Assembly (NCBI RefSeq): GCF_001465295.1
Contig: NZ_CP011034.1
Coordinates: 1,950,001-1,982,000 of the forward strand
Direction of reading: 5' to 3'
Length of the DNA stretch: 32,000 nt
Origin: Pseudoalteromonas translucida KMM 520
GTDB taxonomy: Bacteria; Pseudomonadota; Gammaproteobacteria; Enterobacterales; Alteromonadaceae
The notes under the pieces are model-generated. The model did not search any database, had not been told where the DNA came from, and saw only the letters and a program-made list of their open reading frames with translations. The position numbers and the translations under genes are program-made. Every line of letters begins with the position of its first letter. Positions within the stretch are counted from its first letter, which is position 1. Below are positions 481 to 32,000 of this stretch, one piece after another.

Positions 481-966
481 TTAAGCAACATAGGGGCGAA
501 TAATTACGCCTTCCTCGCCTTTTACTTCTTCCATTACTACATAAGTACGACTTTCGCTAACATTGGGTAACTTTAAGAGTATATCGCCCAGTACTCCTCG
601 GTACTCAGACATGTCGTTTACCCGCGTTTTAAGTAAAAAGTCAAAATTACCCGATACTAAATGGCACTCTATTATTTCGTTATGCTTTTTAACTGCGGCA
701 CTAAATTCGTCAAATACATCTGCCGATGTTTTAGTAATAGTTACCTCAACGTATACCGATAAACCTTGGCCAAGCTTAGCCGGATCGACCACTGCCTTGT
801 AACCAAGTATATAACCTTCTCGCTCCAACTTTTTTACACGCTCTAAACACGGTGTCGCACTTAAGCCAACTCGTCGGGCCAGTTCCACATTAGATAGCCG
901 CCCATCCTGTTGTAATTCCACTAATATTTTGCGATCTATTCTATCTAATAGTGTATGCATACTCAC
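481..966 (-). CDS. lrp: Leucine-responsive regulatory protein (Lrp/AsnC family)
   Basis: The 161-aa product has near-collinear similarity to E. coli Lrp (DRIDRKIL..LQ.DGR.SNVEL..RVGLS.TPCLERV..LE..G.I.GY; C-terminal ECHLVSG.FD.LLKTRV.DMS.YR; TYVVMEEVK). It sits upstream of ftsK. Confidence 0.92.
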   Translation of the reverse strand: MSMHTLLDRIDRKILVELQQDGRLSNVELARRVGLSATPCLERVKKLEREGYILGYKAVVDPAKLGQGLSVYVEVTITKTSADVFDEFSAAVKKHNEIIECHLVSGNFDFLLKTRVNDMSEYRGVLGDILLKLPNVSESRTYVVMEEVKGEEGVIIRPYVA

Positions 967-1099
967 CTAGTTTATTATTCTGTTTAAAAGCCAAAAGCAG
1001 ATATTATCACTATAATATGTTAAAAAAAAGGTAAGACACACTGGCAACACATGAATATAATAGTGAAAAAACTTATCCCGTTCTAACAAGGCGAAAATT

Positions 1100-2221
1100 A
1101 TGATTATAGGTGTACCTAAAGAAATTAAAAACCATGAATACCGCGTAGGTATGGTTCCTGCTAGTGTTCGTGAGCTCGTTAATCACGGCCACCAAGTATT
1201 AGTGGAAACAGATGCGGGTATGGGCATTGGCTTTACTAACGATGATTACGTACAAGCCGGTGCTGAAATTTTAGCAACACCTGCTGATGTATTCGCAAAA
1301 GCCGAGATGATAATTAAAGTAAAAGAGCCACAAGCGATTGAACGTGCCATGCTGCGCGAAGATCAGATTCTTTTCACTTACTTACATCTTGCCCCTGATT
1401 TACCACAAACTGAAGACCTAGTTAAAAGCAAAGCAATTTGTATTGCATACGAAACAGTCACAGACTCTCGCGGTGGCCTTCCTCTTTTAGCTCCTATGAG
1501 TGAAGTAGCAGGTCGTATGTCTATTCAAGCAGGCGCACAAGCGCTTGAAAAAATAAATAAAGGCAGTGGTATGTTACTTGGTGGCGTACCGGGCGTTGAG
1601 CCAGCTAAAGTAGTTATTATTGGCGGCGGTATGGTTGGCCGTAGTGCTGCGCTTATGGCGGTTGGTTTAGGTGCAAATGTAGTAATACTTGATCGTAACA
1701 TTGATGTATTACGCGCACTAGACGCACAGTTTGGCAACAAAGTACGCGCTATTTACTCAACTGCCGACGCACTAGAAAAACACGTACTAGAGGCCGATTT
1801 AGTAATTGGCGGTGTACTCATTCCAGGTGCAGCTGCACCTAAACTAGTAACTGCGGAACACATTAAAGCCATGAAGCCAGGCTCTGCAATTGTTGATGTA
1901 GCAATTGACCAAGGTGGTTGTATTGCTACTTCTAAAGCAACTACGCATGCAGATCCTACGTTCATTGTTGATGACGTTGTTCACTATTGTGTTGCTAATA
2001 TGCCGGGCGCTGTGCCACGAACTTCTACGTTTGCACTTAACAATGCAACCTTGCCGTTTATTATTAACCTTGCAAACAAAGGTTATAAAAAGGCATTGCT
2101 TGACGACGCTCACTTCTTAAAAGGCTTAAATGTTATTAAAGGCCAAGTAACTTACAAAGAAGTAGCAGAAGCGTTTAACATGGAATATGTTGATCCTCGC
2201 ACTGCGCTAGAAAACGTTTAA
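1100..2221 (+). CDS. ald: Alanine dehydrogenase
   Basis: The 373-aa product starts MIIGVPKEIKNHEYRVGMVP, which is typical of Ald. It has a Rossmann motif VVIIGGGMVG and an AGGcgaaaattATG ribosome-binding context. It is divergent from lrp. Confidence 0.95.
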   Translation: MIIGVPKEIKNHEYRVGMVPASVRELVNHGHQVLVETDAGMGIGFTNDDYVQAGAEILATPADVFAKAEMIIKVKEPQAIERAMLREDQILFTYLHLAPDLPQTEDLVKSKAICIAYETVTDSRGGLPLLAPMSEVAGRMSIQAGAQALEKINKGSGMLLGGVPGVEPAKVVIIGGGMVGRSAALMAVGLGANVVILDRNIDVLRALDAQFGNKVRAIYSTADALEKHVLEADLVIGGVLIPGAAAPKLVTAEHIKAMKPGSAIVDVAIDQGGCIATSKATTHADPTFIVDDVVHYCVANMPGAVPRTSTFALNNATLPFIINLANKGYKKALLDDAHFLKGLNVIKGQVTYKEVAEAFNMEYVDPRTALENV

Positions 2222-2230
2222 TTTAGCGTA

Positions 2231-2262
2231 AAGCACTCAAGCATTAACTTACTTGAGTGCTT
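2231..2262 (+). terminator. Hairpin downstream of ald (11-bp stem AAGCACTCAAG/CTTGAGTGCTT)
   Basis: A perfect 11-bp inverted repeat lies 10 nt after the ald stop. The T-tract is weak (TTTAAACTTT). Confidence 0.45.
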
Positions 2263-2291
2263 TAAACTTTAGAGTAAACATTAGTGCAAAC

Positions 2292-2318
2292 AAAAAGCAG
2301 CTATTAAGCTGCTTTTTT
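2292..2318. terminator. Bidirectional rho-independent terminator between convergent ald and pssA
   Basis: The sequence AAAAAGCAGC-tattaa-GCTGCTTTTTT has a GC-containing stem flanked by an A-run and a T-run, so it can terminate in both directions. Confidence 0.65.
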
Positions 2319-2349
2319 ATTGTATAGATTTAAATTTATACCAATTACT

Positions 2350-3675
2350 TTATATAAAGCGTTTAATTATAAAATCTACTTTTACACGCTTTGCTTGGCC
2401 AAGTAACTTTTTAACCGCTTGCGGATAATCGTCCATGGTTTCTAAATCATCTGGGCCAGTTAAACGGCGACAGTGTTGTAGGATTTCTTGCTTTTCGTTG
2501 TCAATATCTTGCATTATTGTTTGCTGTGGATCTTCAATTAAAATACCATTTTCAACATCTAGTCCCCACGCCCGTGGGTTAAGGTTATGACCGCTGAGTA
2601 AATGTACTTTTCTGTCTGAGCAAATGCCTTTTAAATGAAACGAATTACTGTCGTGCTTCCATAAATAAACGTTTAAATTACCGTTATCAATGTGGCGTTT
2701 TTGTGTTTTAACAAATTTATACAAAATAGTTTCGTATAAATACGGCAACGCGCCTATTTTACTAAATGGCTCGCTAGGCGGTACATAAAAGTCGTTAGCG
2801 GTTTTATCGCCCACTACAATAGTAACTTGCTTACCTTGTTTTAATAGCCGGCGTAATGAGCGCATTAATGGCGCCGGAAAATTAAAGTAAGGCGTATACA
2901 ACACCAGCTCTTGCTCGGTGGCGTCAAACATAGTTTTAATTAAACGATTAAGTTCGTTATTGCGTCGCCCTAATCCTAAAAACAAACGAATACCTAAGGG
3001 CTGAGTATTATGCAGCTCGGCGCTGTTATACCTTGCTGTTTTTAAATCACGCATTAATTGCTTTTGATCTAATCTAAAATCATTAAGCTTTGGCAACGGG
3101 CGGCTATCAATACGCGGCACTGCATTTGAGCTAAGTAATGTTGTTTCAATAAAGTCTATTACAGCATCGCACAGCGCGTTTTGCGTAACTAAAAAGTAAC
3201 GATCGAGGCGGTAACGGTCGTTATACTCTAAATACACATTATTTATGCTCGCGCCGCTATAAAGCAAGGTGTCGTCAATTACAAAACCTTTTAAATGCAA
3301 TACGCCAAATAACTCTTTCGCTTTTACGGGTACGCCATATACCTGCACGTTCGATTGAAACTTTTCGAGGTAATCACAATATAAACTGGCATTCCCCTCA
3401 GATTTTTCGGCGCCAATAAGGCCACGTTGCGCGCGATGAAAATCTACCAGCACTTTTATTTCAAGTGCAGGGTTGGCTAATGACACCTGGTGCAGTGCCT
3501 CTAAAACTTCACGTCCTGCTTCATCATCTTGTAAATAAAGCGTGGTTATATAAATTCGTTTTTTTGCGTTGGCAATTAAACGTAGCAATTGCGTACGGTA
3601 CTCTTGCGCATTGGTTAAGACGTTAAGGTCTTTTGAAGTCAACCCAAATGCGGGTTTTTCCTGCCAAAATAACAT
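2350..3675 (-). CDS. pssA: CDP-diacylglycerol--serine O-phosphatidyltransferase (phosphatidylserine synthase, PLD-type)
   Basis: The 441-aa product has two HxKxxxxD (HKD) motifs, HLKGFVID and HLKGICSD. Long collinear blocks match E. coli PssA (VLVDFHRAQRG, YSGASINNVYL, IVVGDKTANDFY.P..EPF..IGALPYLYE, NLNPRAW.LD.EN.ILI.DP). Confidence 0.92.
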   Translation of the reverse strand: MLFWQEKPAFGLTSKDLNVLTNAQEYRTQLLRLIANAKKRIYITTLYLQDDEAGREVLEALHQVSLANPALEIKVLVDFHRAQRGLIGAEKSEGNASLYCDYLEKFQSNVQVYGVPVKAKELFGVLHLKGFVIDDTLLYSGASINNVYLEYNDRYRLDRYFLVTQNALCDAVIDFIETTLLSSNAVPRIDSRPLPKLNDFRLDQKQLMRDLKTARYNSAELHNTQPLGIRLFLGLGRRNNELNRLIKTMFDATEQELVLYTPYFNFPAPLMRSLRRLLKQGKQVTIVVGDKTANDFYVPPSEPFSKIGALPYLYETILYKFVKTQKRHIDNGNLNVYLWKHDSNSFHLKGICSDRKVHLLSGHNLNPRAWGLDVENGILIEDPQQTIMQDIDNEKQEILQHCRRLTGPDDLETMDDYPQAVKKLLGQAKRVKVDFIIKRFI

Positions 3676-3954
3676 AGTTGCCTATTCACTTAGGTCACAT
3701 AATCTTTCAGTGACAAATCAAAATTAGGTAAAACATATCAAAAAAAATCAAACCGGTCATGAATTAACGCAGTTTTGTTGCGTATTAGTCTGTTTATTGA
3801 ACTAATTTTACTTATTAGACATAAATTACTCCATTTTAAGTACACAATATTGCACAGCTTTAAAATTTGTTAAAAAAATTAATCACGGATTTTGTTTACT
3901 TCCTGCTTGTTTTTCTTAGAATCGAGCGCATTACAGAGTGAATTAAACGTTTAG

Positions 3955-4914
<960 letters not shown>

Positions 4915-4931
4915 GCAGTTAAGTGTTTAGT

Positions 4932-4959
4932 AAAAAGGCTGATAAATCAGCCTTTTTTT
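4932..4959 (+). terminator. Rho-independent terminator of trxB
   Basis: The sequence AAAAAGGCTGA-taaa-TCAGCCTTTTTTT lies 18 nt after the trxB stop. Confidence 0.75.
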
Positions 4960-5010
4960 ATGCCTAAATTATAGTTACACTTTTGTTATTCGTTTTTATT
5001 GAAGTATTGT

Positions 5011-5727
5011 ATGAAAAAACAGCTGTACCAGCTAAGTAATACCGATATAGCATTTCCTCCTATAGAGTGCGCACTCGACTCCCCCGACGGTTTACTCGCT
5101 ATTGGTGGCGATTTAAGTTTAGCACGGCTTAGTAACGCTTATAATAATGGTATATTTCCGTGGTTTAGCGAAGACGAGCCAATAATGTGGTGGTCGCCCA
5201 GCGAGCGCGGCATTGTAGAGCTCGATAATTTTCATATTAGTAAAAGCCTGCGCAAGCATTTAAAAAAGCACCCGGTCACCGTTACTATTAATAATGCCTT
5301 TATTGAAGTAATTGAAGCATGCTGCGAGCAACGCATTGATACCGATGGTACGTGGATCACCTCTGACATGCTCACTGCGTACATTAACGCCCACAACGCA
5401 GGCATTGCCCATAGTGTAGAAGTGTGGCGCGAGGGAGAGCTTGCAGGTGGCTTATATGGCATTATGCAAAACGGTGTGTTTTGTGGCGAGTCAATGTTTC
5501 ATCATCAAACAAACTGCTCTAAGCTGGCTATGTGGGCGTTAGTTAATTGGCTTAAGCGCCATAACGCGCATTTTATTGATTGTCAGCTCGAAAACCCCTA
5601 TTTAATGTCGTTAGGAGCAACAGTGATCCCACGCCCTGCATTTTTAGCTAAACTACACGCAGCGCAAAATTATAAAGTAGACCCTGCTATGTGGATACCA
5701 CAGGAGCTTAACGCTATTTATGAATGA
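5011..5727 (+). CDS. aat: Leucyl/phenylalanyl-tRNA--protein transferase
   Basis: The product is collinear with E. coli Aat (IAFP....AL..P.GLLA.GGDLS..RL..AY..GIFPWF....PI.WWSP; GTWIT; HS.EVWRE.EL.GG.YG; FCGESMF). The track ORF starts at TTG 4999, but the first ATG at 5011 (MKKQLYQLS...) fits the homologue N-terminus better. Confidence 0.9.
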   Translation: MKKQLYQLSNTDIAFPPIECALDSPDGLLAIGGDLSLARLSNAYNNGIFPWFSEDEPIMWWSPSERGIVELDNFHISKSLRKHLKKHPVTVTINNAFIEVIEACCEQRIDTDGTWITSDMLTAYINAHNAGIAHSVEVWREGELAGGLYGIMQNGVFCGESMFHHQTNCSKLAMWALVNWLKRHNAHFIDCQLENPYLMSLGATVIPRPAFLAKLHAAQNYKVDPAMWIPQELNAIYE

Positions 5728-6424
5728 ACATATTCCTGCACGCGCTGGTTTAAGCCAAGAGTTTGCTTGTAGTTATTTACCCAACCGCCAAGAGCAGTTA
5801 TTGGTCATTCTTGATCCAAGTTGCTACAGCAGCGATAAGTTTGAGTCTTTGCTGGCGTTAGGTTTTCGTCGCAGCGGTAACCAAATTTACCGCCCACACT
5901 GTCCAACTTGCAGCGCATGTAGCTCTGTACGTGTATTAGTACAAGAGTTTATTGAGACAAAATCGCACAAACGTAAACTAAACAAAGCAAAAACACGCTT
6001 TGAGGTTAAATATTCTAATCAAGAGCGCCCGCAATACTACGCGCTGTACAGTAAATATATTAGTTTGCGCCATCAAGACGGTAGTATGTATCCTCCTGAT
6101 AAAACACAGTTTCAGAGTTTTTTATTATGCAGTTGGTTAAACATCACTTTTATAGAGCTTTGGGATCAAGATAATTTAGTTGCAGTTGCTGTAACTGATT
6201 GTATGGACAAGGCTATTTCAGCTATTTATACTTTTTTTGACCCCGACTATGAGCAGTATAGTTTGGGCACTGTGATGATTTTACAGCAGCTAATATTTGC
6301 TAAAGCGCAAAATAAGCACTATGTGTACTTGGGCTACCAAATAGACGAATGCCCTAAAATGAACTACAAAACGCAATTTTTACCGGCGCAAAAACAAGTC
6401 AAAGACCAGTGGTTGACTATTTAA
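5720..6424 (+). CDS. bpt: Arginyl-tRNA--protein transferase family protein (Bpt/Ate; in Vibrio the homologue acts as an Asp/Glu-specific leucyltransferase)
   Basis: The 234-aa product has YLP.R......LDP......Y..L...GFRRSG...YRP.C..C.AC...R, the signature of the ATE N/C domains. Its start overlaps the aat stop (ATGAATGA, 8-nt overlap), indicating an operon with aat. Confidence 0.85.
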   Translation: MNEHIPARAGLSQEFACSYLPNRQEQLLVILDPSCYSSDKFESLLALGFRRSGNQIYRPHCPTCSACSSVRVLVQEFIETKSHKRKLNKAKTRFEVKYSNQERPQYYALYSKYISLRHQDGSMYPPDKTQFQSFLLCSWLNITFIELWDQDNLVAVAVTDCMDKAISAIYTFFDPDYEQYSLGTVMILQQLIFAKAQNKHYVYLGYQIDECPKMNYKTQFLPAQKQVKDQWLTI

Positions 6425-6496
6425 TTTGCAAAAATAGCCGCTGCGCCTTTACTTATTGGCGTATTTTGGGCAGAATCTGCAGCGTTTAACTATTAA

Positions 6497-6733
<237 letters not shown>

Positions 6734-6786
6734 GTAAGTGCGTAAACGAGATTTAGTTTTTGGCTAGTGCTTCACTAGCTTTAAGC

Positions 6787-6837
6787 GTTTATTAAATGTA
6801 ATTGATGGATATTAACTAGCAATTACATTTAATAAAC
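6787..6837. repeat. Perfect 18-bp inverted repeat (GTTTATTAAATGTAATTG / CAATTACATTTAATAAAC) with a 15-nt loop
   Basis: I verified the reverse complement by hand. It lies between infA and its terminator, is AT-rich, and has no obvious coding role. Confidence 0.8.
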
Positions 6838-6864
6838 AAAAAACCCAGCCTTGCTGGGTTTTTT
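6838..6864 (+). terminator. Rho-independent terminator (infA side)
   Basis: The sequence AAAACCCAGC-ctt-GCTGGGTTTTTT has a stem plus a T-run. Confidence 0.75.
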
Positions 6865-6885
6865 GTTGTCTATAAAACATTACAA

Positions 6886-6917
6886 AAAAAGGCCTGCTTT
6901 TAAAAGCAGGCCTTTTT
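6886..6917. terminator. Bidirectional rho-independent terminator (clpA side)
   Basis: The sequence AAAAAGGCCTGCTTTTAAAAGCAGGCCTTTTT is a perfect palindrome 27 nt downstream of the clpA stop (minus strand). Confidence 0.8.
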
Positions 6918-6943
6918 ATTTAACTCATTTAGCGCATATTAAA

Positions 6944-9205
6944 CTAAGCTGGAGTTAAATCGCTTTCGTAATCAAAGCGTATTTTTTTATCTTTAACCGA
7001 TACTTTAACCGTACCGCCTTCAACAAGTTCACCAAAGAGTATTTCGTTGGCTAATGGTTTTTTAAGCTGCTCTTGGATAATACGTGCCATAGGACGTGCA
7101 CCCATGGCTTTGTCATAACCTTTGTCAGCCAACCATTCACGCGCTTTAGCACTAAGCTCAAGATTAACTGATTTTTTATCCAGTTGCGCCTGAAGCTCCA
7201 CAATAAACTTATCAACCACGAGTAAAATAACGTCTTTATCAAGGTGATTAAACCAAATAATGTTATCTAAACGGTTTCTAAATTCTGGTGAAAATACTTT
7301 ATTAATTTCACCCATTGCATCGTGCGTATGGTCTTGCTCGCTAAAACCAATTGATGCGCGCGTTGTTTCTTGCACACCCGCATTGGTGGTCATTACCACG
7401 ACTACATTTCTAAAATCGGCTTTGCGACCGTTATTATCAGTTAATGTACCGTGATCCATTACTTGCAACAATATGTTGTAAATATCTGGATGCGCTTTTT
7501 CAATCTCATCTAACAGTACTACCGCATGCGGGTTTTTAATTACCGCTTCAGTGAGTAAACCACCTTGCTCAAAACCAACATAACCTGGTGGCGCACCAAT
7601 TAGTCGACTTATTGCATGGCGCTCTACGTACTCCGACATATCAAAGCGAATAAACTCAACACCCATACATTTAGCTAGCTGTTTAGTAACCTCGGTTTTG
7701 CCTACCCCTGTTGGGCCTGCAAATAAGAACGACCCTACTGGTTTTTCTTCGTTGGCTAAACCAGAGCGCGATAAGCGAATAGCCGATGTAAGCGCATCAA
7801 TAGATTGATCTTGCCCAAACACCAACATTTTTAAATTGCGGTCTAAGTTTTTTAGCGTTTCTTTGTCGCTAGATGACACACTTTGCGGTGGAATACGCGC
7901 CATTTTAGCCACAATGTTTTCTATATCGGCAACACCAATGGTTTTTTTACGTTTAGAGCTAGGCAGTAAACGTTGGCTTGCACCGGCTTCGTCGATTACG
8001 TCAATTGCTTTGTCGGGCAAATGGCGTTCATTAATATATTTTGCACTTAGCTCTGCCGCTGCTTTTAACGCTTTTTGCGTATAACGAATACCATGGTGCG
8101 CTTCGTAACGCTCTTTTAAACCATTTAATATTTTAGTGGTATCGGCAACACTCGGCTCAAGCACATCAATTTTTTGAAAGCGACGTACCAAGGCGCGGTC
8201 TTTCTCAAAAATATTTTTATACTCGTTATAAGTTGTCGACCCCATACAACGTAATTGCCCACTAGAGAGCAGTGGCTTAAGTAAGTTTGATGCATCCATA
8301 ACTCCACCCGATGCCGCGCCGGCACCAATAATGGTATGAATTTCATCAATAAATAAAATAGAACCCGGTTGTGCTTGCAACTCTTTTAGTAAGCTTTTAA
8401 AGCGTTTTTCAAAATCGCCACGGTACTTAGTACCTGCCAATAATGCGCCCATATCAAGCGAGTAAACAACTGCATCGGCAATTACTTCGGGTACTTGCTT
8501 ATTTACAATACGATACGCTAGGCCTTCTGCAATTGCTGTTTTACCAACACCTGCTTCGCCTACTAATAATGGGTTGTTCTTTTTACGACGACACAACACC
8601 TGTACAGTGCGCTCTACTTCACTATCGCGCCCTATTAATGGGTCAATGTGACCTTCAAGCGCTTGTACGTTTAAATTAGTGGTAAAGCTGTCGAGCTTGC
8701 TCGCTTCTTCGCTTTGCACTTCTTGTACGTCTTCGTGAATATCGTCGGTGTCATCGCCTAATTCATCATCGCCTTTGGCAATGCCATGCGAAATAAAATT
8801 AACGATATCGAGACGTGATATATCGTGTTTTTTAAGTAAATATACTGCTTGGCTTTCTTGTTCAGAAAAAATAGCCACCAGCACATTTACGCCTGTCACT
8901 TCGTTTTTACCTGATGATTGCACATGAAAAACAGCACGTTGCAATACACGTTGAAAACCAAGTGTTGGCTGAGTTTCACGCTCTTCTTCTAAATCTGGAA
9001 TAACCGGCGTGGTTTCGTTAATAAACTCAAGTAATTCAGTTTTTAACTCTGCAACATTTACTGCACAGGCACTTAGCGCTTCCCCAGCAGATGGATTGTC
9101 CAAAAGCGCAAGTAAAAGGTGTTCTACCGTCATAAACTCATGACGACGTGTACGCGCTTCGCGAAACGCGCTGTTCAAAGTAAGTTCTAAATCTTTATTT
9201 AGCAT
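6944..9205 (-). CDS. clpA: ATP-dependent Clp protease ATP-binding subunit ClpA
   Basis: The product has two AAA+ modules with Walker A motifs GEAGVGKT and GPTGVGKT, and an N-terminus [35 protein letters not shown] like E. coli ClpA. The track starts at TTG 9211. I prefer ATG 9205, which is preceded by AAGGGG. Confidence 0.97.
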
Positions 9206-22677: not shown

Positions 22678-22754
22678 ACGACTGTAGCTCAGTTGGTTAG
22701 AGCACTACCTTGACATGGTAGGGGTCGGTGGTTCGAATCCACTCAGTCGTACCA
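22678..22754 (+). tRNA. tRNA-Val (anticodon GAC)
   Basis: I folded the cloverleaf by hand. The acceptor stem is ACGACTG/CAGTCGT, the D-arm is GCTC-AGTTGGTTA-GAGC and the anticodon arm is CTACC-TTGACAT-GGTAG. The T-arm is GGTGG-TTCGAAT-CCACT, with an encoded CCA. It is close to E. coli valV/valW. Confidence 0.93.
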
Positions 22755-22780: not shown

Positions 22781-22857
<77 letters not shown>

Positions 22858-23484: not shown

Positions 23485-25668
23485 TTAATTTACCCCAAGC
23501 GCTTTATAAACAGCGTCAACAGGGTCACTGTAAAAACTTACCTGAAACTTAGTAAACGTTTCTGCTGGGACTGAAGGGATATCACTGGCTGATGCCATTG
23601 GCAAAAGTACCTTAGTTGCTCCACCTTCTAGTGCAATTTGCATACTTGATGCAAGGTCTTGCACTGGATTTACCACACCACCTAATGTAATGCTGCCAAG
23701 CACAACCATAGACTCTTGTATTGGCTTATTCATTAGAACTGAACAACTAGCAATTAAAGAAGCTAAACTTGCTGTACGACTATTACCGGAGTTTTGTAAG
23801 TCAACAAAGTGCAAGTGAAATTCGTGTTCAGAAAATCGTGAAGTTGCTGCTATACGATTTAAATTACCTTTAAAATATTCAAAACCCACCCTAACCTGTT
23901 CTTTTGCTGACGTATCAGAGCCAAAACCTGAAGTAGAGTGCTTACCATTACCAGGTGTCATTTGAGTTTCAACTCTGTATAGCCCTAACTTGCCAGCTGC
24001 TCCTTCACTTACAAAATGAAGCACACCAGGGTTAGCTATTCCAGCTGGTATCAAGTTTGAACCACCTTGTTCTGGAACATTGACAAAAAACTCCTCGAGC
24101 GTTTCATTGTCAATATAGCTAAAGTTAACATCAAAAAATTCCATGCCGCCTATTTTTTTCAACTGTTCTTTAATTCGACGGCGAACCTCTAAAGCATAGG
24201 TTAAACATACCCTTACATCTTCTTTAGTATATTCCCCATGAGGTACTAATAACTTTAATAAACCAGACGTAGTTCGACGCACACCTATTACATCTCGTTG
24301 ATTTAAGTTATTTCCTAGCTTAAAGAACTTATTAATAGAGTCTGAAAACGTTGTCTTGCGCATTTCGCGCATGTATTCAGCTAAGTAATCAGTTATTAAA
24401 CCAAAGCGGTCTGTGAAGAACTCAGGGCGCATTTTAGGTATTTCCCAACCAGGAATGTATCCGTGAAAACGGTCAAAAAATGCGGCATCAATCATATCAT
24501 CAGGGAATGGCGCTAAAAGGTGACTCGTTTTTACTAAAGTTTCAACGCTATGGTCAATATTACCAACAAACACCATTGACGCTTTAGCTTCTATCGAATC
24601 ACGGCCACGAGAGAATGAACCTGAGGCCATATAATCTTTCATGATCTGAATACCGTCTTTATCTTTAAAACGGATTCCGGCTACTTCATCAAAGGCCACA
24701 ACGTCCCACATTCCCACTAAACCAATTTGGCGAGAAGACATATTATAAAAAAGGTTAGCAACTGTAGTTTGTCCGCCCGATACCAAGAGCGAGTTAGGAG
24801 AGCACTCTTTATAAACATGCGACTTACCTGTACCACGCGGCCCAAGTTCACAAACGTTATAGTTATTTTCAACAAATGGGATCATGCGAGCAATTAAATG
24901 CCATTTAGTTCGGTGATCTAAATTAGCAGGTTCCATTCCAATGGAGCGCAATAACATATCGATCCACTGATCCATTGTGAACTTACGTCGAGCTTGATAT
25001 ACCTCTTCCATATTCATAGAAGGCATTTGAATTGGCTTTAAGCTAAATACACTAAAAGGTGATACTTTCTGGCCTTCTTCATAGAAATAGCTAACTGTAA
25101 TAATGCACCAAATACCGCCAGTTAAGAGCTTCTCGTTTTCTTTAACAATTTTATTTGGCACAACCGCATCTTTGATACCGATATTAGATAGGCTTGCTTC
25201 GTAAATATCTTTTTTCTGGTTTAGCTTAACCGTCACTTTATCTATAACTTTATGTGTGCCTTTTTCACGAATAAGCGACTTGGCCTTTTCTGCCTCATCT
25301 GGTCGAACATAGTTTTCCGTTAAGATTTTCTTAACGTTTTTCATGCCTTCGTCAATTAAGTCATCTTCAGCAGCAGAGCAATACATACCTAAAAGGTATT
25401 CCAATACGTATACAGGAACGTTAGCACCTTCTTTTAACTGCTTTGTTAGATCTTTACGTACAATACGACCTTTAAATTCATTTATCATTAACTCGTCTAG
25501 ATCAATACTTCTTAGCTCCCCACGCTCAGTAAGCACAGGTGCAGTGTCGTCTATAGGGTCTATCGTCGCGTCATTTTCATGCATATGAACATGTACATTA
25601 ATTTCACGTTCTTGGTTGGCAACTTGGTTTTCTTGATTATCATTTTCTAAATTGTCTTTGGTTTCCAT
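23485..25668 (-). CDS. brxL: BREX system Lon protease-like protein BrxL
   Basis: The 727-aa product has long blocks characteristic of BrxL as I recall it (GRIVRKDLTK.LKEGANVPVYVLEYLLGMYC; YVRPDEAEK.KSL.RE.G..KVID.VTVKLN; NYNVCELGPRGTGKSH.YKECSPNS.LVSGGQTTVANLFYNMS; WDVVAFDEVAG; C-terminal FTKFQ.SFY.DPVDAV.KALGV). The Walker A motif is GPRGTGKS. A strong SD (GGAAGGcataaaATG) lies 12 nt after the pglZ stop. The ~55-aa acidic N-terminal extension is not in my recollection of E. coli BrxL. Confidence 0.93.
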   Translation of the reverse strand: METKDNLENDNQENQVANQEREINVHVHMHENDATIDPIDDTAPVLTERGELRSIDLDELMINEFKGRIVRKDLTKQLKEGANVPVYVLEYLLGMYCSAAEDDLIDEGMKNVKKILTENYVRPDEAEKAKSLIREKGTHKVIDKVTVKLNQKKDIYEASLSNIGIKDAVVPNKIVKENEKLLTGGIWCIITVSYFYEEGQKVSPFSVFSLKPIQMPSMNMEEVYQARRKFTMDQWIDMLLRSIGMEPANLDHRTKWHLIARMIPFVENNYNVCELGPRGTGKSHVYKECSPNSLLVSGGQTTVANLFYNMSSRQIGLVGMWDVVAFDEVAGIRFKDKDGIQIMKDYMASGSFSRGRDSIEAKASMVFVGNIDHSVETLVKTSHLLAPFPDDMIDAAFFDRFHGYIPGWEIPKMRPEFFTDRFGLITDYLAEYMREMRKTTFSDSINKFFKLGNNLNQRDVIGVRRTTSGLLKLLVPHGEYTKEDVRVCLTYALEVRRRIKEQLKKIGGMEFFDVNFSYIDNETLEEFFVNVPEQGGSNLIPAGIANPGVLHFVSEGAAGKLGLYRVETQMTPGNGKHSTSGFGSDTSAKEQVRVGFEYFKGNLNRIAATSRFSEHEFHLHFVDLQNSGNSRTASLASLIASCSVLMNKPIQESMVVLGSITLGGVVNPVQDLASSMQIALEGGATKVLLPMASASDIPSVPAETFTKFQVSFYSDPVDAVYKALGVN

Positions 25669-25680
25669 TTTATGCCTTCC

Positions 25681-28419
25681 CTAAAAAAAGTCGTCTTCAA
25701 AAGCTAAGTCAATAATCACAGAGTGTGTTGTTTTTACTTTGCTCTCTGTATCTTCCATCATTAACTTGTAGCTCACTGTGCGGTCAAAGCCGCTACCTTC
25801 TAATTTTATTTGTACGTTGCGTTTACGATCGTCCATCTTCTCTGAGGTCGATTCAAACAATACCTTTTCACGTGAACTTACCTTTTTACCATCGGAATCT
25901 TCAATCCATATTTCTAATTCACGGGCCTTAAATTTCTCGCCTACCGGATCTGTTTGAAGGAATTTGATCCTATCGATATTAGATACTATTTTCACAGGAT
26001 TATTGAGCGGAACAGCGTTTACTTTCTGCTTTGCGTGTTTCGTTTGAGCCTTTGTATCTAACTCTCTAATTTGAAGAACAGGAACACAAATTTCCTGTGG
26101 CATAATACCACCATGAATAAACTTAGCCCCACCAACAAAATTAAAACGGTTACTTCCCCTTGGGATCATAAACTCAGCATCATCACCACCGTCAACATCT
26201 ACGCCAGCAGTGTTAGCTAATTTGCCAGTCCAGTAATAACTGTCTGTAGGTAAGTTTGAGCCTATTACATAACGCTTTTTCGCTTCGGTTGTGCCTGCTG
26301 GTTTTGATTTAAGCGCAGTCTTATCTGAATCGGTCACGTCCGTCATTTTAAACAAAAAACCATGATCAGCAGTAATAAGTACTCTACTACCGTTTAAGCG
26401 ATTAATGATACGACCAATCAATTGCTTAATTTCATCAACGGCATCGCGAGCGGCTTCGAAGGTTTGATTCTCTGTCGCTTGCTTATCACCTATTGCATCA
26501 ATCTCATCGTGATAAATATAAACTACCTGAGTATCACGTACTTTGTCTCGGCCTTCTTGATTTGTCCAGTTAAGAACCTCATCCGCTTTAAATGCAACAC
26601 CGCCGTACTTTTCAAGGATTTTATGGCGGTTTTCATGCCCATGCACAGACATTCCATCAGCTTTATATTCTGGCTTAGTGCCAAGGTGAGCTGTCAGCTT
26701 CTGATGAGGTAACAAACTACCCATGCCCAGTTGAGTGTAAGAAGGTACAACGCCTAACTGAGACTTAATTTCAGACTTAAAGCGTTTTTCATCATTAATC
26801 TGCTGGTGAATATCATGCGCTACCTCGTATCGAAGAGCATCAGAGATGATCACAAAAACCCGTTTAGTTTGAGTTTTATTTAATAGGCCTTTAACTTCTT
26901 CACGGAAGAAGTCTTGCTGATTGTTTATTCCAGCTAGGCTCCAATTATCCAGTAAGTTTTCATCATCAACTAACTTACCCCAGACAATCGCTAAATCATG
27001 CAAGTACCAATCAACATATAAGTGCTCAATATCTTCAACAAGACCCGTTGCTTTTAAAATATCAGAGCCGTTTTTACTAATTTCAATCGAGTTCTCACTA
27101 AAAATACGATACGCATGGTCAAACTTATAAAGCTCCGTTTCATAAGCTTTATAAAGGCTCCTTGCACTTTCAAAAGCCAAACCATCAATATGCTTTTCTT
27201 TTAAGTCATAAAACTCTTTAGCCGCTCTTAATGCCGTATAAATAGCCGCATAGTTAGCACTATCTTTATGTGACCCTGTTGAGCACCAATGGCTGCGTAA
27301 CTTTTTCGAAACCCATTCATTAATTTCAACAGCGTTATATGCAGGTAAATCCGTTGCTAACGATTTAATTAGCTGCTGATCCGCTTCAACAAAGGTTTCA
27401 ACATGTATCAACTCCGACGGATGTTTAAACTCGGCAAGTTTACTCTTGATTTCTAGCTCTTGGGCAACCTCAAATGCCACAACATTATATGAATCCGATA
27501 ACGTTCGGCTTTCTCGCCAAGACGACACAAAGTTAACCACAGATGCACGTTTAGAAGCCGCATTAAATAGCAACTCTTTTACGCTCTTTGGCAGTGTCGT
27601 TGTTTCTTCGTCGCTTAAGGTCATGGGTAAAGTATGCGCCGAAAGGCTTGAGGCAAAATTAGTGGCCTGAACAGTAACGCCAGACGACTGCAACGCTTGG
27701 TAGCAATCAGTGACTAATAACTTGGTTAATAAATCTTTTAGTAAAACGAGTTGGGCACTAGCACCTTTATTATCAATCCATAAACAATTGGCAACATAGC
27801 CAAACTCTTCAACAGCTAACAGCCAAAACACTTTACCAAGCTCAAATTTATTTAAATCAGATAGCAACTCATCTGCTTTTTCTGGCTGCTCGGCATACAA
27901 CTTAATTAATTGATAAAAAGCCGCAGTAAAAGAAACCGTTTCTACCTTAGCGATAACAGCAATCATCGAAAGCTCTAATGTTTGTTTATCTGCACCCTCT
28001 GGAAGTAAGCGCTTTAGCTTGTTATATCGCTGCTGGTTCCCAAAAAACTTCTTATAGCGGCTTATATCTTGGCGAAACTCCATTCTCATACCTAGCTCAT
28101 TCAATATCATCGAGCTTGAATCAGCATAAAACTGCTCTGCGTATAAGCGAATATCATACAGCCAATCACGTGCTGGCTCGTTTTGCGGTTTATTGCTATA
28201 CAACAAGAACTTTGAGCTTGTTTCTTTTAGTTCAATACGTTGCTTTATTTCAAAATGAGAACACGCATCAAGCTCAATAAGCTCTACATTACTGCTATTA
28301 AGTTCATCATTTATTGCTGGCAGCTGCTCTTTAAATTCAACATCTTCATCTTGCCAAAATACCAATCGGCACTTGTCGAATTTGGCTAAAATGCCTTGTT
28401 TTATTTGTTCTAGGTTCAT
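25681..28419 (-). CDS. pglZ: BREX-1 alkaline-phosphatase-superfamily protein PglZ
   Basis: The 912-aa product has the N-terminal CRLVFWQDEDVEF motif, the PglZ-domain metal-site motifs VFVIISDALRYEVA and VLITADHGFLF, and a position immediately upstream of brxL. Confidence 0.92.
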   Translation of the reverse strand: MNLEQIKQGILAKFDKCRLVFWQDEDVEFKEQLPAINDELNSSNVELIELDACSHFEIKQRIELKETSSKFLLYSNKPQNEPARDWLYDIRLYAEQFYADSSSMILNELGMRMEFRQDISRYKKFFGNQQRYNKLKRLLPEGADKQTLELSMIAVIAKVETVSFTAAFYQLIKLYAEQPEKADELLSDLNKFELGKVFWLLAVEEFGYVANCLWIDNKGASAQLVLLKDLLTKLLVTDCYQALQSSGVTVQATNFASSLSAHTLPMTLSDEETTTLPKSVKELLFNAASKRASVVNFVSSWRESRTLSDSYNVVAFEVAQELEIKSKLAEFKHPSELIHVETFVEADQQLIKSLATDLPAYNAVEINEWVSKKLRSHWCSTGSHKDSANYAAIYTALRAAKEFYDLKEKHIDGLAFESARSLYKAYETELYKFDHAYRIFSENSIEISKNGSDILKATGLVEDIEHLYVDWYLHDLAIVWGKLVDDENLLDNWSLAGINNQQDFFREEVKGLLNKTQTKRVFVIISDALRYEVAHDIHQQINDEKRFKSEIKSQLGVVPSYTQLGMGSLLPHQKLTAHLGTKPEYKADGMSVHGHENRHKILEKYGGVAFKADEVLNWTNQEGRDKVRDTQVVYIYHDEIDAIGDKQATENQTFEAARDAVDEIKQLIGRIINRLNGSRVLITADHGFLFKMTDVTDSDKTALKSKPAGTTEAKKRYVIGSNLPTDSYYWTGKLANTAGVDVDGGDDAEFMIPRGSNRFNFVGGAKFIHGGIMPQEICVPVLQIRELDTKAQTKHAKQKVNAVPLNNPVKIVSNIDRIKFLQTDPVGEKFKARELEIWIEDSDGKKVSSREKVLFESTSEKMDDRKRNVQIKLEGSGFDRTVSYKLMMEDTESKVKTTHSVIIDLAFEDDFF

Positions 28420-29753
28420 TAATTGAATACACCCATATTCTCTTCTATTTCTTCACCACATACTTCACAAAATTGTGCGTACATATCGTTGCCTGCATTG
28501 CATTCGTAGCAGGTGCTGATATTGTCTTCACGTAAGGTTTCTGTACAAAATGGGCACTCTAATTCATATACTGAAACTACCGTATCACAAACATCACAGC
28601 TTGTTGCCAGTGCTTGTTCATCATGATGCTTTCTATCTTCTAGTTCAGGTTTTACCCTTTCAATAACGCCAAAACGCTCTAAGTTCTGCCCATAATCAAG
28701 TAGTAATGTTTCGCCTTTTGATGGGTGCAAACGTAAACCTCGGCCAAGTATTTGTAAAAATAACGACGTACTTGCGGTCGGTCTGGCGTTTACTATGCAA
28801 GCCAATCGCGGTGCATCCCAACCTGTAGTTAAGGTCGCTATATTTATAAGCCCATTAAGCTGGCCTTGCTCAAATTGCTGAAGGTAATCGGTTCGTTGTG
28901 TTTTTGGGGTTTGCGCAGTAATCAGCGGAAAATCAAAACCATACTCAGTCAAACACTGAGAAAATAATACACCTTGATTCACCGAACTTGCGTAAAACAC
29001 GGTAGGTAAGTTAGCCGATGTTTTATTAAGCCAGTCGGCTACTATCGACTCTACAATTGAATCTACAGCCGTAGCCTCGTCCAAATCTTTTTGAATAAAG
29101 TCGTTTTTTCCTTTTCTAACAGCTGAGATATCGGCAACAGCCTTTGGGTCTGTCACTACAGCACGTAATTGGCATAAATAGCCAGAATTTACCAACTCAT
29201 CAATACGCTTCTTATAAATTAGGGTTTTAAATAATTTATCTTTACTTTCGCCATATATTTCACCTGAATACATACGAAAAGGCGTAGCAGTGAACCCTAT
29301 AATTTTTGGCTCATTCCCATGCATAGCAATAGTATCTAATATATATTGATAACGGGCTGATTGTTCTGGTGGAATTAAATGCGCTTCATCAACAATCACT
29401 AAGTCCCAATCAGGGTTCTCTCCTATTTCTTTTATAATAGAATCTCGGCTTGCAGACGTTACCTGCTTAATTTCTTTGCGACGAAGTCCTGAGCAATAAA
29501 TACCAACATCTAAATCAGGCCAAATTGCTCTTAGCTTTTCTTCATTTTGCTGAACAATCTCCTGAGTGTGAGCCAAAATTAACACTCTAAGCTTCGGTAT
29601 ATCAGTAATTAACTGTTTAATCAGCTCAGCAAAAATAATTGTTTTACCACTTGCTGTTGGTAAAATACATAAGCCATTTTTTTCATTTGAATTAACGTAA
29701 AAATTTTTTAACGCTAAAATTGCTTCTTGTTGATAGGGACGCAGTTCCATCAC
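28419..29753 (-). CDS. SF2 DEAH-box helicase, RadD/YejH-like (ResIII/COG1061-type), with two C-terminal zinc ribbons
   Basis: The 444-aa product has a Q motif (LRPYQQEA), motif I (LPTASGKT, nt 29640-29660), motif II (VDEAH, DEAH at nt 29379-29390), motif III (TATP), motif V (LTTGWDAP) and motif VI (QILGRGLR). The C-terminus has CDVC-x10-CPFC and CYEC-x10-CEVC (nt 28458-28598). The likely start is ATG 29750, overlapping the upstream stop (TGATG); GTG 29753 is the track start. Its stop overlaps the pglZ start (TAATG). Confidence 0.85.
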   Translation of the reverse strand: MMELRPYQQEAILALKNFYVNSNEKNGLCILPTASGKTIIFAELIKQLITDIPKLRVLILAHTQEIVQQNEEKLRAIWPDLDVGIYCSGLRRKEIKQVTSASRDSIIKEIGENPDWDLVIVDEAHLIPPEQSARYQYILDTIAMHGNEPKIIGFTATPFRMYSGEIYGESKDKLFKTLIYKKRIDELVNSGYLCQLRAVVTDPKAVADISAVRKGKNDFIQKDLDEATAVDSIVESIVADWLNKTSANLPTVFYASSVNQGVLFSQCLTEYGFDFPLITAQTPKTQRTDYLQQFEQGQLNGLINIATLTTGWDAPRLACIVNARPTASTSLFLQILGRGLRLHPSKGETLLLDYGQNLERFGVIERVKPELEDRKHHDEQALATSCDVCDTVVSVYELECPFCTETLREDNISTCYECNAGNDMYAQFCEVCGEEIEENMGVFN

Positions 29754-30346
29754 ATATCCTTCACTTCAGTAATAACTTGAAAGAAATAATCAAAAAATGG
29801 TTGGTTACTTTGATAATCAGGCTCACTTATCCGCCCATTTCTATGGATCAACTCGTTACGTTGTTTACGGATTGTTTTTTGAGTTTTTCCCGTTCTTTGC
29901 TTAACAAGCTCACCAGTCAGCTTATCGGCCAGTAGTTGTTTTATCTTGTATTCATCTAATTCAGAATTAAACTTTTTCAAGCATTTGAAAACTTGATCAA
30001 CATTGATTTTTTCAAAAGAACTTCTTGAAGCTAAATATTTTGAAAACAAAGGTTCATACACTTTCTTTTCAAAGGTTTCGTCGGTGTAACCAATATCTTC
30101 TAAATTACTCGATAATGACTTAAACGTATCTTCACACCAATTGCATACCTGTGCAGTTCGAATAATATGAATAGCAATTTGCTCAACTGCCATCCATTGT
30201 GTTAGAAATGCCTGAGTATGATGCCCCTGCTTTTGCAATCCATTTACTTCGACTTCAATATTTACGATTAAATCATTGCCACTTTTAAGTTTTTGTAATA
30301 ACCGTCTTTTAACATTAGCGTCGCTAGTCAACCTTGGAGGTGCCAT
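29750..30346 (-). CDS. Hypothetical 198-aa helical-looking protein with an R-N-x3-H motif; candidate HEPN-domain RNase
   Basis: The ORF has a good SD (AAGGTGGTGaattaatATG) located inside the pglX 3' end. Its start lies 1 nt after the pglX stop. R163-N-E-L-I-H168 (nt 29843-29860) is a canonical HEPN Rx4-6H signature placed ~30 aa from the C-terminus, as in minimal HEPN domains. The composition suggests an all-helical fold, but I ran no secondary-structure prediction. I recognise no other family. The CDS is well supported (~0.85), but the HEPN assignment is tentative (~0.45). Confidence 0.6.
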   Translation of the reverse strand: MAPPRLTSDANVKRRLLQKLKSGNDLIVNIEVEVNGLQKQGHHTQAFLTQWMAVEQIAIHIIRTAQVCNWCEDTFKSLSSNLEDIGYTDETFEKKVYEPLFSKYLASRSSFEKINVDQVFKCLKKFNSELDEYKIKQLLADKLTGELVKQRTGKTQKTIRKQRNELIHRNGRISEPDYQSNQPFFDYFFQVITEVKDM

Positions 30347-30347
30347 A

Positions 30348-32000
30348 TTAATTCACCACCTTTCCGTGGATGGCTTTTACATCGCTCAGTAAATTGCCAA
30401 ATTTGCCGTAGTTAACTTTTACCCCGTCGTCGAGGTCGAGAGTAATACGTTTTTCAGCGAAGTGTTTGAGTTGTTCATCAAAAGAGCGAAGTTCGGCTTG
30501 TTTTCCCCCAAGTGACTTTAAGTCTTTTTCGATAGTACGTGCTTCCGTGCCTGTGGCTTGTAGTTGTTGCTCAGATAACAAATTATATTGAGCTTCGTAT
30601 GCACCAATCAGCGGTATAAGATACTCAGTACGCATACGCGACAAAGTGCTTTCGTTATAGCGATGCATATAGACTAAACACTCAAAGGCTTTTTCTTTTC
30701 CTGAGCTAAATAACCAGTATATTGGCTTTCTTGCATACTTAGTGACATGTTCTTTAAAAAATTGAGTTGATAAGTATCTTCTAAGAGTATTTTCTGCTGA
30801 CTCAGCCTTCTTAGGATTAATTGCATTAAGTATCAAGCTATCAGCAATGAAATTAATATTTTGGTTTAAGCTCTCAGCTCCCCAAACACTTTTTACAAAC
30901 TCAACTACCCTGCCTGTTGCATCATCTTCATATACCCAAGAATCCTCTGCTAACGGCACAATTGCATCATCATCCGGCTGAAAGCTTGAGTACATTCCCT
31001 TGTTTAATACCGATTTAAACTGACTAACGTCTTGGTTTGCAAAAACCACCCCGTCACCGGTATAACTAAATCGACCCATTATGCAGCCTACAATATAACT
31101 TATTAAACTAACCACGGTATCCGATCTAAAAGTATTAAGCACCTTCGCTTTATAAGCATCAGGTTCGCTTTCGTCTAAATTCGTACCAACAGTAAAGTAT
31201 GGGTTTTTATAGAAAGACAAATCAGATGCAGATATTACTACTCGCTCATTTGCGTCAATTTGATAGCTTTCATCTACATGCTCATTTAAGCTTTGCTCCA
31301 GCGAGCTAATATAATTAACAAATTGATGTGTATCAGATTCAATCGTTAAAAAGTCATCTGCTATCAATGTCGAACTTGCCTTAAGATGTTCAAGCATAAT
31401 AGGATGGCTGCCAAACGCTATTGATGTTTCTACGCTATGCCAGTCTTCTTTTGAACACTCAACAAGTTGCTCCACAGTATCTGCAATAGCTGCTTTTTCA
31501 TCATCAACAATAGGTAACACGGCTAAATCATTTGGTCTTATTGAGCCTAAAACCCCTTCTGGATACACCGTTTTGACTAAACGGTTAAACATTGAAGAGT
31601 TTAACAAACCCAACTGAAACAACCTTGTTTGCTCATCAGTAATATTTTCACTTGGGGCAAAGCAAGGGCCTGACGCATCATAAATAGCGTCAGATGGTAC
31701 TTCTCGAGCATTAAACGTCGGCGCCAAAGCGGTCCAAGAGTTAACTTTGCTTTCTAATTGTTGATTAAGTTGACCAATTTCAGATTCCTTCGTATTTACA
31801 TAGCCATTAATGTTTCCATACCAACGCCTATACTCTCCACCTGAAATTATGGGCTTCCAACTGCCTTGTTCGCTATCTAAATCATGATTATTTAGCTCCC
31901 ACCACTGCCTAACATATTTATCACGGTCAATGTTTTTACCTGCTGGCAGTGTTGCCACACTAGACTTAAAAGGCTGCCCCAACGAAAATGCATTCTGTAA
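30348..32000 (-). CDS. pglX: BREX-1 adenine-specific DNA methyltransferase PglX, C-terminal ~550 aa (partial; the gene continues beyond the window end)
   Basis: The frame is open to the window edge. The track's M at 31982 is a TTG inside a longer frame (...LQNAFSLGQPFK...). The C-terminal tail ...LDLDDGVKVNYGKFG..L is typical of PglX as I recall it. Its position upstream of pglZ-brxL supports the call. The catalytic NPPY region would lie outside the window. Confidence 0.85.
   Translation of the reverse strand, partial: LQNAFSLGQPFKSSVATLPAGKNIDRDKYVRQWWELNNHDLDSEQGSWKPIISGGEYRRWYGNINGYVNTKESEIGQLNQQLESKVNSWTALAPTFNAREVPSDAIYDASGPCFAPSENITDEQTRLFQLGLLNSSMFNRLVKTVYPEGVLGSIRPNDLAVLPIVDDEKAAIADTVEQLVECSKEDWHSVETSIAFGSHPIMLEHLKASSTLIADDFLTIESDTHQFVNYISSLEQSLNEHVDESYQIDANERVVISASDLSFYKNPYFTVGTNLDESEPDAYKAKVLNTFRSDTVVSLISYIVGCIMGRFSYTGDGVVFANQDVSQFKSVLNKGMYSSFQPDDDAIVPLAEDSWVYEDDATGRVVEFVKSVWGAESLNQNINFIADSLILNAINPKKAESAENTLRRYLSTQFFKEHVTKYARKPIYWLFSSGKEKAFECLVYMHRYNESTLSRMRTEYLIPLIGAYEAQYNLLSEQQLQATGTEARTIEKDLKSLGGKQAELRSFDEQLKHFAEKRITLDLDDGVKVNYGKFGNLLSDVKAIHGKVVN

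Follow-up and report, generated by a model that had tools for sequence, protein, structure and literature searches.

A putative HEPN ribonuclease encoded beside the BREX methyltransferase PglX in Pseudoalteromonas translucida

Background

Does a small unannotated gene lying directly behind the methyltransferase gene of a bacteriophage exclusion (BREX) operon encode a ribonuclease (RNase), and what would such an enzyme do there? The question is raised by 32,000 nucleotides of Pseudoalteromonas translucida KMM 520 (contig NZ_CP011034.1, positions 1,950,001 to 1,982,000), this whole stretch being referred to as the window, in which an open reading frame (ORF) of 198 amino acids follows the gene of the BREX methyltransferase PglX. 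An earlier note on this DNA, made from its letters, had described the product, here called the HEPN-like protein, as an orphan carrying an R-N-x3-H signature of HEPN RNases and as the likely toxic effector of the surrounding cassette.

How BREX stops phages, and what happens once phages inhibit BREX, are standing questions, to which this gene brings a concrete, testable candidate for a second, abortive layer of defence wired to the methyltransferase. Our comparisons indicate that the HEPN-like protein is very probably a HEPN-superfamily domain forming its own family, closest to the RiboL-PSP-HEPN and Csm6-type HEPN domains and belonging to neither. By analogy with PrrC, it is also rather probable, with less assurance than the domain assignment, that it represents a latent HEPN RNase serving as a backup (abortive-infection) effector coupled to PglX.

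Results and discussion

A conserved HEPN signature

The ORF (29750-30346, minus strand, stop codon included in the span) begins with ATG, and the codons of R163-N164-E-L-I-H168 occupy positions 29843-29860 of the minus strand, with a polar residue after the arginine, as the earlier note had located them. This is the single Rx4-6H match of the protein, and H168 lies exactly 30 residues before the C-terminus, in agreement with the approximate distance first given. The caution that a lone Rx4H match may be fortuitous was justified, RNxxxH arising in 1.2% of the shuffled versions of the 198-residue protein; over the open stretches of at least 100 amino acids of the window it was counted once in a total of 9,920 residues, the one occurrence being the R163-H168 motif itself.

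Conservation raises the motif above chance. When 25 homologues, the most distant at 17% identity, are aligned (32% identity per column on average), just two columns do not vary, R160 (codon 29867-29869, minus strand) and H168, both found in 25 of 25 sequences, while R163 and N164 are each present in 24 of 25 and T158 in 23 of 25, which extends the signature to T158-I-R160-x-x-R163-N164-x3-H168 and makes it the most conserved feature of the family. The conservation of R163 and H168 among homologues, proposed in the earlier note as a check of the HEPN assignment, is thus established. HEPN domains (Pfam clan CL0291) are defined by an Rx4-6H element with a polar residue (N, D or H) after the arginine and by an upstream Ex3[KR] element in helix 2 (PMC3710099). 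The counterpart of the second element is E55 (codon 30182-30184, minus strand), an acidic residue located in a long helix (residues 43-81) and conserved in the 23 of 23 sequences covering this column, with a lysine or arginine at +4 in 15 of them. Both defining elements can therefore be counted as present in the family, on the basis of the conserved R163-N164-x3-H168 and E55.

Similarity to HEPN profiles

The window protein matched the Pfam model RiboL-PSP-HEPN (PF18735) with an E-value of 0.012 (15.9 bits, for a gathering score of 28.4) and the PADLOC Csx1/Csm6 model, which comprises CARF and HEPN parts, with an E-value of 3.7e-4, the match being confined to the HEPN part; NCBIfam returned nothing meaningful. 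Scanning the 25 members one by one gave a more coherent picture. In Pfam, RiboL-PSP-HEPN was matched by 15 of the 25 (best E-value 4.7e-5), DUF4145 by five, the Csm6 HEPN model by three and the MAE_28990 HEPN model by one, and each non-HEPN family matched was hit by a single member only. In PADLOC, Csx1/Csm6 was matched by 11 of 25 (best E-value 6.3e-7) and two CARF_HEPN models by seven and three members. No family recurred among the members in PHROGs, and none of 10 reversed sequences used as controls (0/10) had a HEPN match, the recurrent matches of the family in Pfam and PADLOC being restricted to HEPN models.

These alignments cover much more than the motif. The best Csx1/Csm6 match aligns residues 20-193 with profile positions 218-338 of 357, and across the family such matches start at residue ~20-39 and end at ~193, on model positions 218-339. 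The alignment with PF18735 is collinear (residues 83-195 on profile positions 81-185 of 191). The similarity can be said to go well beyond the motif since the Pfam Csm6 HEPN model covers the N-terminal helices (residues ~19-79) and PF18735 the C-terminal two-thirds.

Predicted structure

The helix-rich character noticed by eye in the earlier note was reproduced by an AlphaFold2 model based on a 25-sequence alignment (predicted local distance difference test, pLDDT, 87.0; predicted template modelling score 0.83), which is all-helical, with helices at residues 9-22, 31-39, 43-81, 89-107, 116-124, 132-139, 146-149, 159-168 and 175-197. The long helix 43-81 bearing E55 is followed by an insert (82-158) with short helices, by helix 159-168, a loop and the C-terminal helix 175-197; the motif stands at the end of the penultimate helix, 159-168, just ahead of the loop. 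In this model the order of the helices fits the HEPN layout described in PMC3710099. The protein is nevertheless not the minimal four-helix HEPN domain that had been supposed: extra helices precede the core on the N-terminal side, and ~75 residues are inserted between core helices two and three. The structural check suggested with the initial proposal gave no positive result: the model is helical and has the motif where HEPN domains have it, but three Foldseek searches gave no significant HEPN match.

Within the insert, residues ~100-140 (29930-30050, minus strand) showed weak EF-hand-like matches to myosin light chains and MTIP (E-values 0.07-0.45), and the Pfam model EF_EFCAB10_C was matched at 0.027 by one member in the same region. 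A calcium-binding EF-hand was rejected, considering E-values of 0.03-0.3 and a family consensus devoid of calcium-ligand pattern.

A small, unannotated family

Eleven proteins at least 59% identical to the HEPN-like protein were found in a collection of 5.8 billion proteins, and exhaustive scoring of 1.84 billion representatives delimited a family of 21 clusters at 50% identity (E-value ≤1e-3). A survey of 185,579 species genomes gave a single family locus, and the JGI metagenome set gave three; no member was detected in plasmids or phages by tblastn, nor in a scan of IMG/VR viral contigs. The protein has no Pfam, NCBIfam or PHROG family and is a "hypothetical protein" in all naming sources, which agrees with its description as an orphan, although the existence of the 21 clusters does not. 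An exhaustive hidden Markov model (HMM) search gave no bridge from the family to annotated HEPN families, and a word-indexed search repeated up to an E-value of 10 added neither marginal matches nor such a bridge. Searches of BREX-survey supplements and of the literature did not turn up WP_105264929.1, the sole member with a name. The family is unannotated and absent from the literature and BREX-survey supplements searched.

The BREX operon of the window

What the earlier note called a cassette is a type 1 BREX operon according to Pfam, PADLOC and NCBIfam. On the minus strand, the order is PglX, HEPN-like gene, helicase, PglZ and BrxL. PglX (30348-32000, minus strand) is cut by the end of the window, which retains its C-terminal 544 residues (NCBIfam BREX_1_MTaseX, 6e-121; PADLOC PglX, 1.4e-123). 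The superfamily 2 (SF2) helicase of 444 residues (28419-29753, minus strand) has ResIII/DEAD and Helicase_C domains and a C-terminal double zinc ribbon (Pfam ResIII, 5.5e-23); it is RadD-like, its NCBIfam RadD match (1.4e-69) remaining far under the model's own cut-off. PglZ (25681-28419, minus strand; Pfam PglZ, 5.3e-65; PADLOC PglZ, 2.4e-260) and the Lon-like BrxL (23485-25668, minus strand; PADLOC BrxL and NCBIfam TIGR02653, both E=0) are BREX core components, the latter encoded by the last gene of the operon. In a near-identical metagenomic locus (L016; loci and family members other than the window are designated by L and P numbers), PglX is a single ORF of 1115 residues, 95% identical to that of the window, and is preceded by an ORF of 1241 residues at the slot taken by BrxC in related loci.

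The junctions are tight. The ATG of the HEPN-like gene lies one nucleotide past the PglX stop (TAA-T-ATG), with a Shine-Dalgarno-like AAGGTGGTGA upstream, within the 3' end of PglX; its stop overlaps the helicase start (ATGTGATGG), and the helicase stop in turn overlaps the PglZ start (TAATG). The HEPN-like gene is co-transcribed and translationally coupled with PglX. We consider it a genuine gene because of its full-length homologues, of the Shine-Dalgarno-like sequence, of these tight junctions on both sides and of a ratio of non-synonymous to synonymous substitution rates (dN/dS) of 0.34 against its closest relative, indicating that it is under purifying selection. Compared with its counterpart in L016 (10001-10597), the gene is 92% identical in DNA, against 97-99% for the flanking helicase, PglZ and BrxL, and most of the differences fall in its first ~100 nucleotides, beside the variable 3' end of PglX. 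This pattern suggests a recombination breakpoint inside the HEPN-like gene; positive selection was discarded in view of the dN/dS value and of this clustering, which resembles a recombination boundary.

Two tandem tRNA-Val(GAC) genes (22678-22754 and 22781-22857, plus strand), ~630 bp past the end of brxL, are likely to mark where the BREX island integrated or ends, its opposite limit lying beyond the window. Outside the operon, the window carries housekeeping genes of a low-GC gammaproteobacterium. The helicase has no match to the BREX helicase models BrxHI and BrxHII, and aligned with just partial stretches of type IV and type I restriction, PbeA and Hachiman HamB models.

PglX, rather than the helicase, as constant neighbour

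The genomic context could be resolved for 13 family members, and 12 of them stand inside modification-based defence loci, 11 being beside or inside PglX or elsewhere in a BREX locus. The gene directly follows PglX in the window and for P0002, P0005 and P0006, each time with the helicase next, and for P0012, where other genes come next. PglX and PglZ are the immediate neighbours of P0010; P0008 and P0022 lie elsewhere in the PglX-PglZ gap, and P0032 upstream of PglZ-BrxL, its own upstream neighbour not being identified. The arrangement PglX, HEPN-like gene, helicase, PglZ is found in L005-L007 and L016; in L001 (Pseudoalteromonas sp. T1lg76), GmrSD and further genes come between the helicase and PglZ. 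L002/L003 have PglX, the gene and PglZ without helicase, L008 has PglX, the gene and then HicAB-like and other small genes, and L010/L015 present the gene followed by a Schlafen AlbA_2/HATPase_c_4/winged helix-turn-helix (wHTH) gene, PglZ and BrxL. In L014, P0015 is located between the hsdS (Methylase_S, 1.3e-25) and hsdR (HSDR_N, 9.8e-9) genes of a type I restriction-modification (R-M) system (2-592 / 598-1179 / 1191-1490). The family is too rare to be a core component of type 1 BREX, in which BrxA, BrxB, BrxC, PglX, PglZ and BrxL are generally present; one BREX lineage carries the HEPN-like gene as an accessory.

Read otherwise, these loci would harbour a self-contained defence or toxin module of two genes, the HEPN-like gene and the SF2 helicase, lodged in the PglX-PglZ recombination hotspot and working independently of BREX. 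The two genes are translationally coupled in the window, the pair recurs (the helicase is present in L001, L004-L007, L016 and L017), a member only 26% identical (P0022, in L013) is still trailed by a 29-residue helicase remnant, fusions of HEPN with SF2 helicases are known in R-M contexts (PMC3710099), and the PglX-PglZ gap hosts other cassettes (GmrSD, Schlafen, ATPase plus DUF4276, HicAB). However, there is no helicase in L002/L003, L008, L010/L015, L014 and the loci with a split PglX described below, the pair is never seen outside BREX, and no PADLOC system or candidate model matches the two genes as a pair. Moreover, the identity of the HEPN-like protein tracks that of PglZ from locus to locus (HEPN-like protein/PglZ: 89/98, 75/80, 67/67, 74/64, 60/60 and 40/43%). 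The independent module appears unlikely in this light. An obligate toxin-antitoxin or other two-gene unit with the helicase was rejected, the helicase missing in five kinds of loci, as was a recently inserted mobile cassette, the parallel identities with PglZ rather suggesting inheritance with the operon. The helicase is a frequent yet dispensable neighbour; the constant neighbour of the family is PglX.

The PglX-PglZ gap and adjoining regions show further features. In L013, P0022 is placed in the gap between two pairs of ATPase (AAA_15/AAA_21) and DUF4276 genes, with a remnant of the PglX C-terminus before it and the helicase N-terminal remnant (2908-2994) after it. The last ~30-40 residues of PglX occur there in three copies (3-473, 2203-2295 and 4985-5110), one true end and two remnants, and these remnants and gene pairs suggest that recombination has exchanged cassettes here again and again. 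The Schlafen-type gene (AlbA_2, HATPase_c_4 and Fic-like_C, a wHTH domain) is found at two different places in related BREX operons: L001 (4784-6316) has it between BrxC and PglX, whereas L010 (2152-3633) and L015 (547-2028) have it directly after the HEPN-like gene. L004 contains tandem PglX-like methyltransferase genes (611-4330 and 4331-7903), and its HEPN-like/helicase pair is parted from PglX by four inserted genes; between the tandem and the pair, one gene encodes pentapeptide repeats and another has a faint nucleotidyltransferase match.

HEPN-like genes nested in a split PglX

For P0021 (L019/L020) and P0016 (L022/L023), the gene is inserted between two ORFs matching PglX residues ~1-640 and ~641 onward, on contigs too short to show whether the BREX systems are complete. 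The N-terminal PglX ORF, the HEPN-like gene and the C-terminal PglX ORF are at 1-609, 632-1234 and 1271-2500 in L019, and at 2070-3968, 4312-4896 and 4893-5258 in L022. In L021 (170-781 / 837-1433), the gene of P0023 is directly upstream of a C-terminal PglX ORF, and the short ORF upstream of it is not PglX-like. The break is clean, just ahead of the conserved block F-R-A-S-A-x-D-F-K-K-I-P-G-S-P-I-A-Y-W, and costs PglX none of its sequence. The C-terminal ORF of L022/L023 ends after 121 residues. From the domain order published for PglX/BrxX (helical bundle, methyltransferase, target recognition domain, C-terminal region), we infer that the break falls between the methylase and recognition parts.

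P0016, P0021 and P0023 are mutually only 29-37% identical, which argues that the nested arrangement is either old or recurrent. Nesting between PglX halves is not mentioned in PMC12839542, PMC3710099 or bioRxiv 10.1101/2024.01.29.577857. The arrangement shows PglX to be able to work, or at any rate to be maintained, as two polypeptides, methylase and recognition, which is useful for dissecting and engineering BREX specificity.

A proposed latent RNase coupled to PglX

The HEPN-like protein, which stands alone and has a single domain, is most likely a metal-independent endoribonuclease, as its catalytic-type signature is intact, with T-I-R-x-x-R-N-x3-H at the end of the third core helix and a conserved glutamate in the second. 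In HEPN RNases such as Csm6, Cas13 and HepT, the active site is built from two motifs in a dimer, and the HEPN-like protein would likewise have to dimerise to form its active site. As a class, HEPN RNases are metal-independent endoribonucleases (PMC3710099).

In the scenario that we favour, the protein, made from the BREX operon transcript in translational coupling with PglX, would be kept inactive in normal cells, most plausibly by contact with PglX or the BREX complex; a phage disabling or overwhelming BREX would release the RNase, which would then cut cellular or phage RNA. Latency and release are proposed here on account of two precedents. PrrC is held inactive by the EcoprrI R-M enzyme until a phage anti-restriction factor, Stp of T4, acts (bioRxiv 10.1101/2024.01.29.577857; PMC3710099), and published proposals see stand-alone HEPN modules in BREX/Pgl loci as suicidal effectors kept in reserve (PMC12839542; PMC3710099). 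In its most specific and tentative form, drawn by analogy and less likely than not, the proposal would make the protein the BREX counterpart of PrrC, a latent RNase that physically guards the methyltransferase/recognition module of PglX and fires when PglX-targeting anti-BREX proteins (Ocr-type DNA mimics) disable PglX, in an old and tight partnership nested, in several divergent lineages, in split PglX and, in type I systems, at the hsdS/hsdR slot. Ocr of phage T7 reportedly binds PglX/BrxX. It is a known BREX inhibitor (PMC7261183).

Several observations weigh against the HEPN RNase reading. No profile match attains a curated threshold, the best individually scanned member (P0014) scoring 23 bits where PF18735 requires 28.4, and hmmsearch with the family profiles against PDB sequences retrieved not one HEPN chain, its only matches being the weak EF-hand-like ones to the middle insert. 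Foldseek searches of a model with a pLDDT of 73.6 against PDB and BFVD, and of the model with a pLDDT of 87 against PDB, returned nothing at E<0.8, the HEPN structures 2q00, 7bxo, 6m6u and 5yep appearing only at E-values of 3.6-8.6 with template modelling scores below 0.55. The window clade, composed of members at least 37% identical, is devoid of the lysine or arginine of Ex3[KR], the residue at +4 being Ile59, followed by His60. P0014 has neither an R-M nor a BREX system around it and stands alone next to an RHH/ParE pair. Finally, no antitoxin-like partner is constant, and no means of keeping a constitutively expressed RNase harmless is apparent from the sequence.

Some of these points could be accommodated by a HEPN fold without nuclease function, the protein being an RNA- or nucleotide-binding or scaffolding subunit that modulates PglX (methylation, target recognition), as do the non-catalytic HEPN domains in nucleotidyltransferases. 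The tight positional coupling to PglX, including the nesting at the junction of methyltransferase and recognition parts, would suit such a role, as would the absence of a visible antitoxin and of the Ex3[KR] basic residue in the window clade, and inactive HEPN domains are common (PMC3710099). But such inactive domains typically lose Rx4-6H (PMC3710099), when here the arginine, asparagine and histidine are the most conserved positions of the family, which argues for selection on catalysis and leaves a non-catalytic subunit improbable. That the protein contains no HEPN domain, its R-N-x3-H serving another purpose in an unrelated helical protein and its weak profile matches reflecting this short motif alone, is very improbable, since the subthreshold scores, the Foldseek and PDB sequence searches without significant HEPN match and the lack of a bridge to annotated HEPN families in exhaustive HMM and word-indexed searches have to be set against several distinct HEPN models matching far beyond the motif (PADLOC Csx1/Csm6 from end to end of the protein), best E-values of 6.3e-7 and 4.7e-5 with clean reversed controls, a second HEPN element (the glutamate of the long helix upstream, mostly accompanied by K/R at +4), and a secondary-structure layout and R-M/BREX context that both fit HEPN.

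The proposed latent RNase coupled to PglX lends itself to study, the family being small, with clear catalytic residues to mutate (R163 and H168) and natural variants with and without the helicase. If the protein proved inactive or unrelated to BREX function, a recombination hotspot already known as such would simply have gained another hypothetical gene.

Comparison with known systems

The Csm6/Csx1 proteins, ancillary RNases of type III CRISPR systems, have the R-N-x3-H form of the motif in common with the HEPN-like protein, and differ from it by an N-terminal CARF sensor. Membership was rejected for want of a CARF domain, and control by cyclic oligoadenylates cannot apply, given that this sensor is missing and that none of the genes called in the loci examined is a cas gene.

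MNT-HEPN proteins (HepT/DUF86) are likewise small single-domain Rx4H proteins, known as toxins. Their HepT structures (5yep, 7bxo and 6m6u) were only among the non-significant Foldseek matches, with no significant sequence match either. Membership was set aside as no nucleotidyltransferase antitoxin is directly adjacent in any locus, the neighbours in the window being PglX and the helicase; a faint NTP_transf_2 match occurs in L004, two short ORFs upstream of the HEPN-like gene.

Among Pfam models the best match is to RiboL-PSP-HEPN (PF18735; named "Ribo L-PSP-HEPN" by Anantharaman et al. 2013), a family in which the Rx4H motif is also conserved (PMC3710099). All scores being below the gathering threshold of 28.4 bits, membership in PF18735 was not retained, and, unlike RiboL-PSP-HEPN, the family has no L-PSP fusion or ParB neighbour in any locus examined. 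The HEPN-like family would rather be a sister of RiboL-PSP-HEPN within the HEPN superfamily.

PrrC, of the EcoprrI type Ic R-M system, resembles the HEPN-like protein in having an Rx4-6H nuclease motif and a gene lodged inside a modification-based defence operon, next to methylase and specificity genes. The slot of PrrC in its locus is that of P0015 between hsdS and hsdR, a likeness of context and not of membership. PrrC has a large N-terminal ABC-ATPase, whereas the HEPN-like protein is a bare 198 residues without nucleoside triphosphatase motif, and the host of PrrC is a type I R-M system, that of the HEPN-like family being mostly BREX (PglX). No sequence similarity to PrrC was detected, and membership in PrrC/RloC was rejected, the protein being too short and without ATPase domain match in Pfam, NCBIfam or PADLOC.

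The stand-alone HEPN backup effectors of BREX/Pgl loci (PMC12839542; PMC3710099) embody the same concept, that of a second-line RNase nested in a BREX, Hma or R-M operon. For one embedded HEPN protein, HEC-08, phage defence needed the motif histidine (bioRxiv 10.1101/2024.01.29.577857); HEC-08 combines DUF3644 with zinc ribbons, unlike the HEPN-like protein. The family described here is in neither Pfam nor PADLOC. Suicide RNases housed within restriction systems have been a published theme since 2013; the family itself is new, its unusual elements being the nesting inside a split PglX and the strict attachment to the methylase/specificity module.

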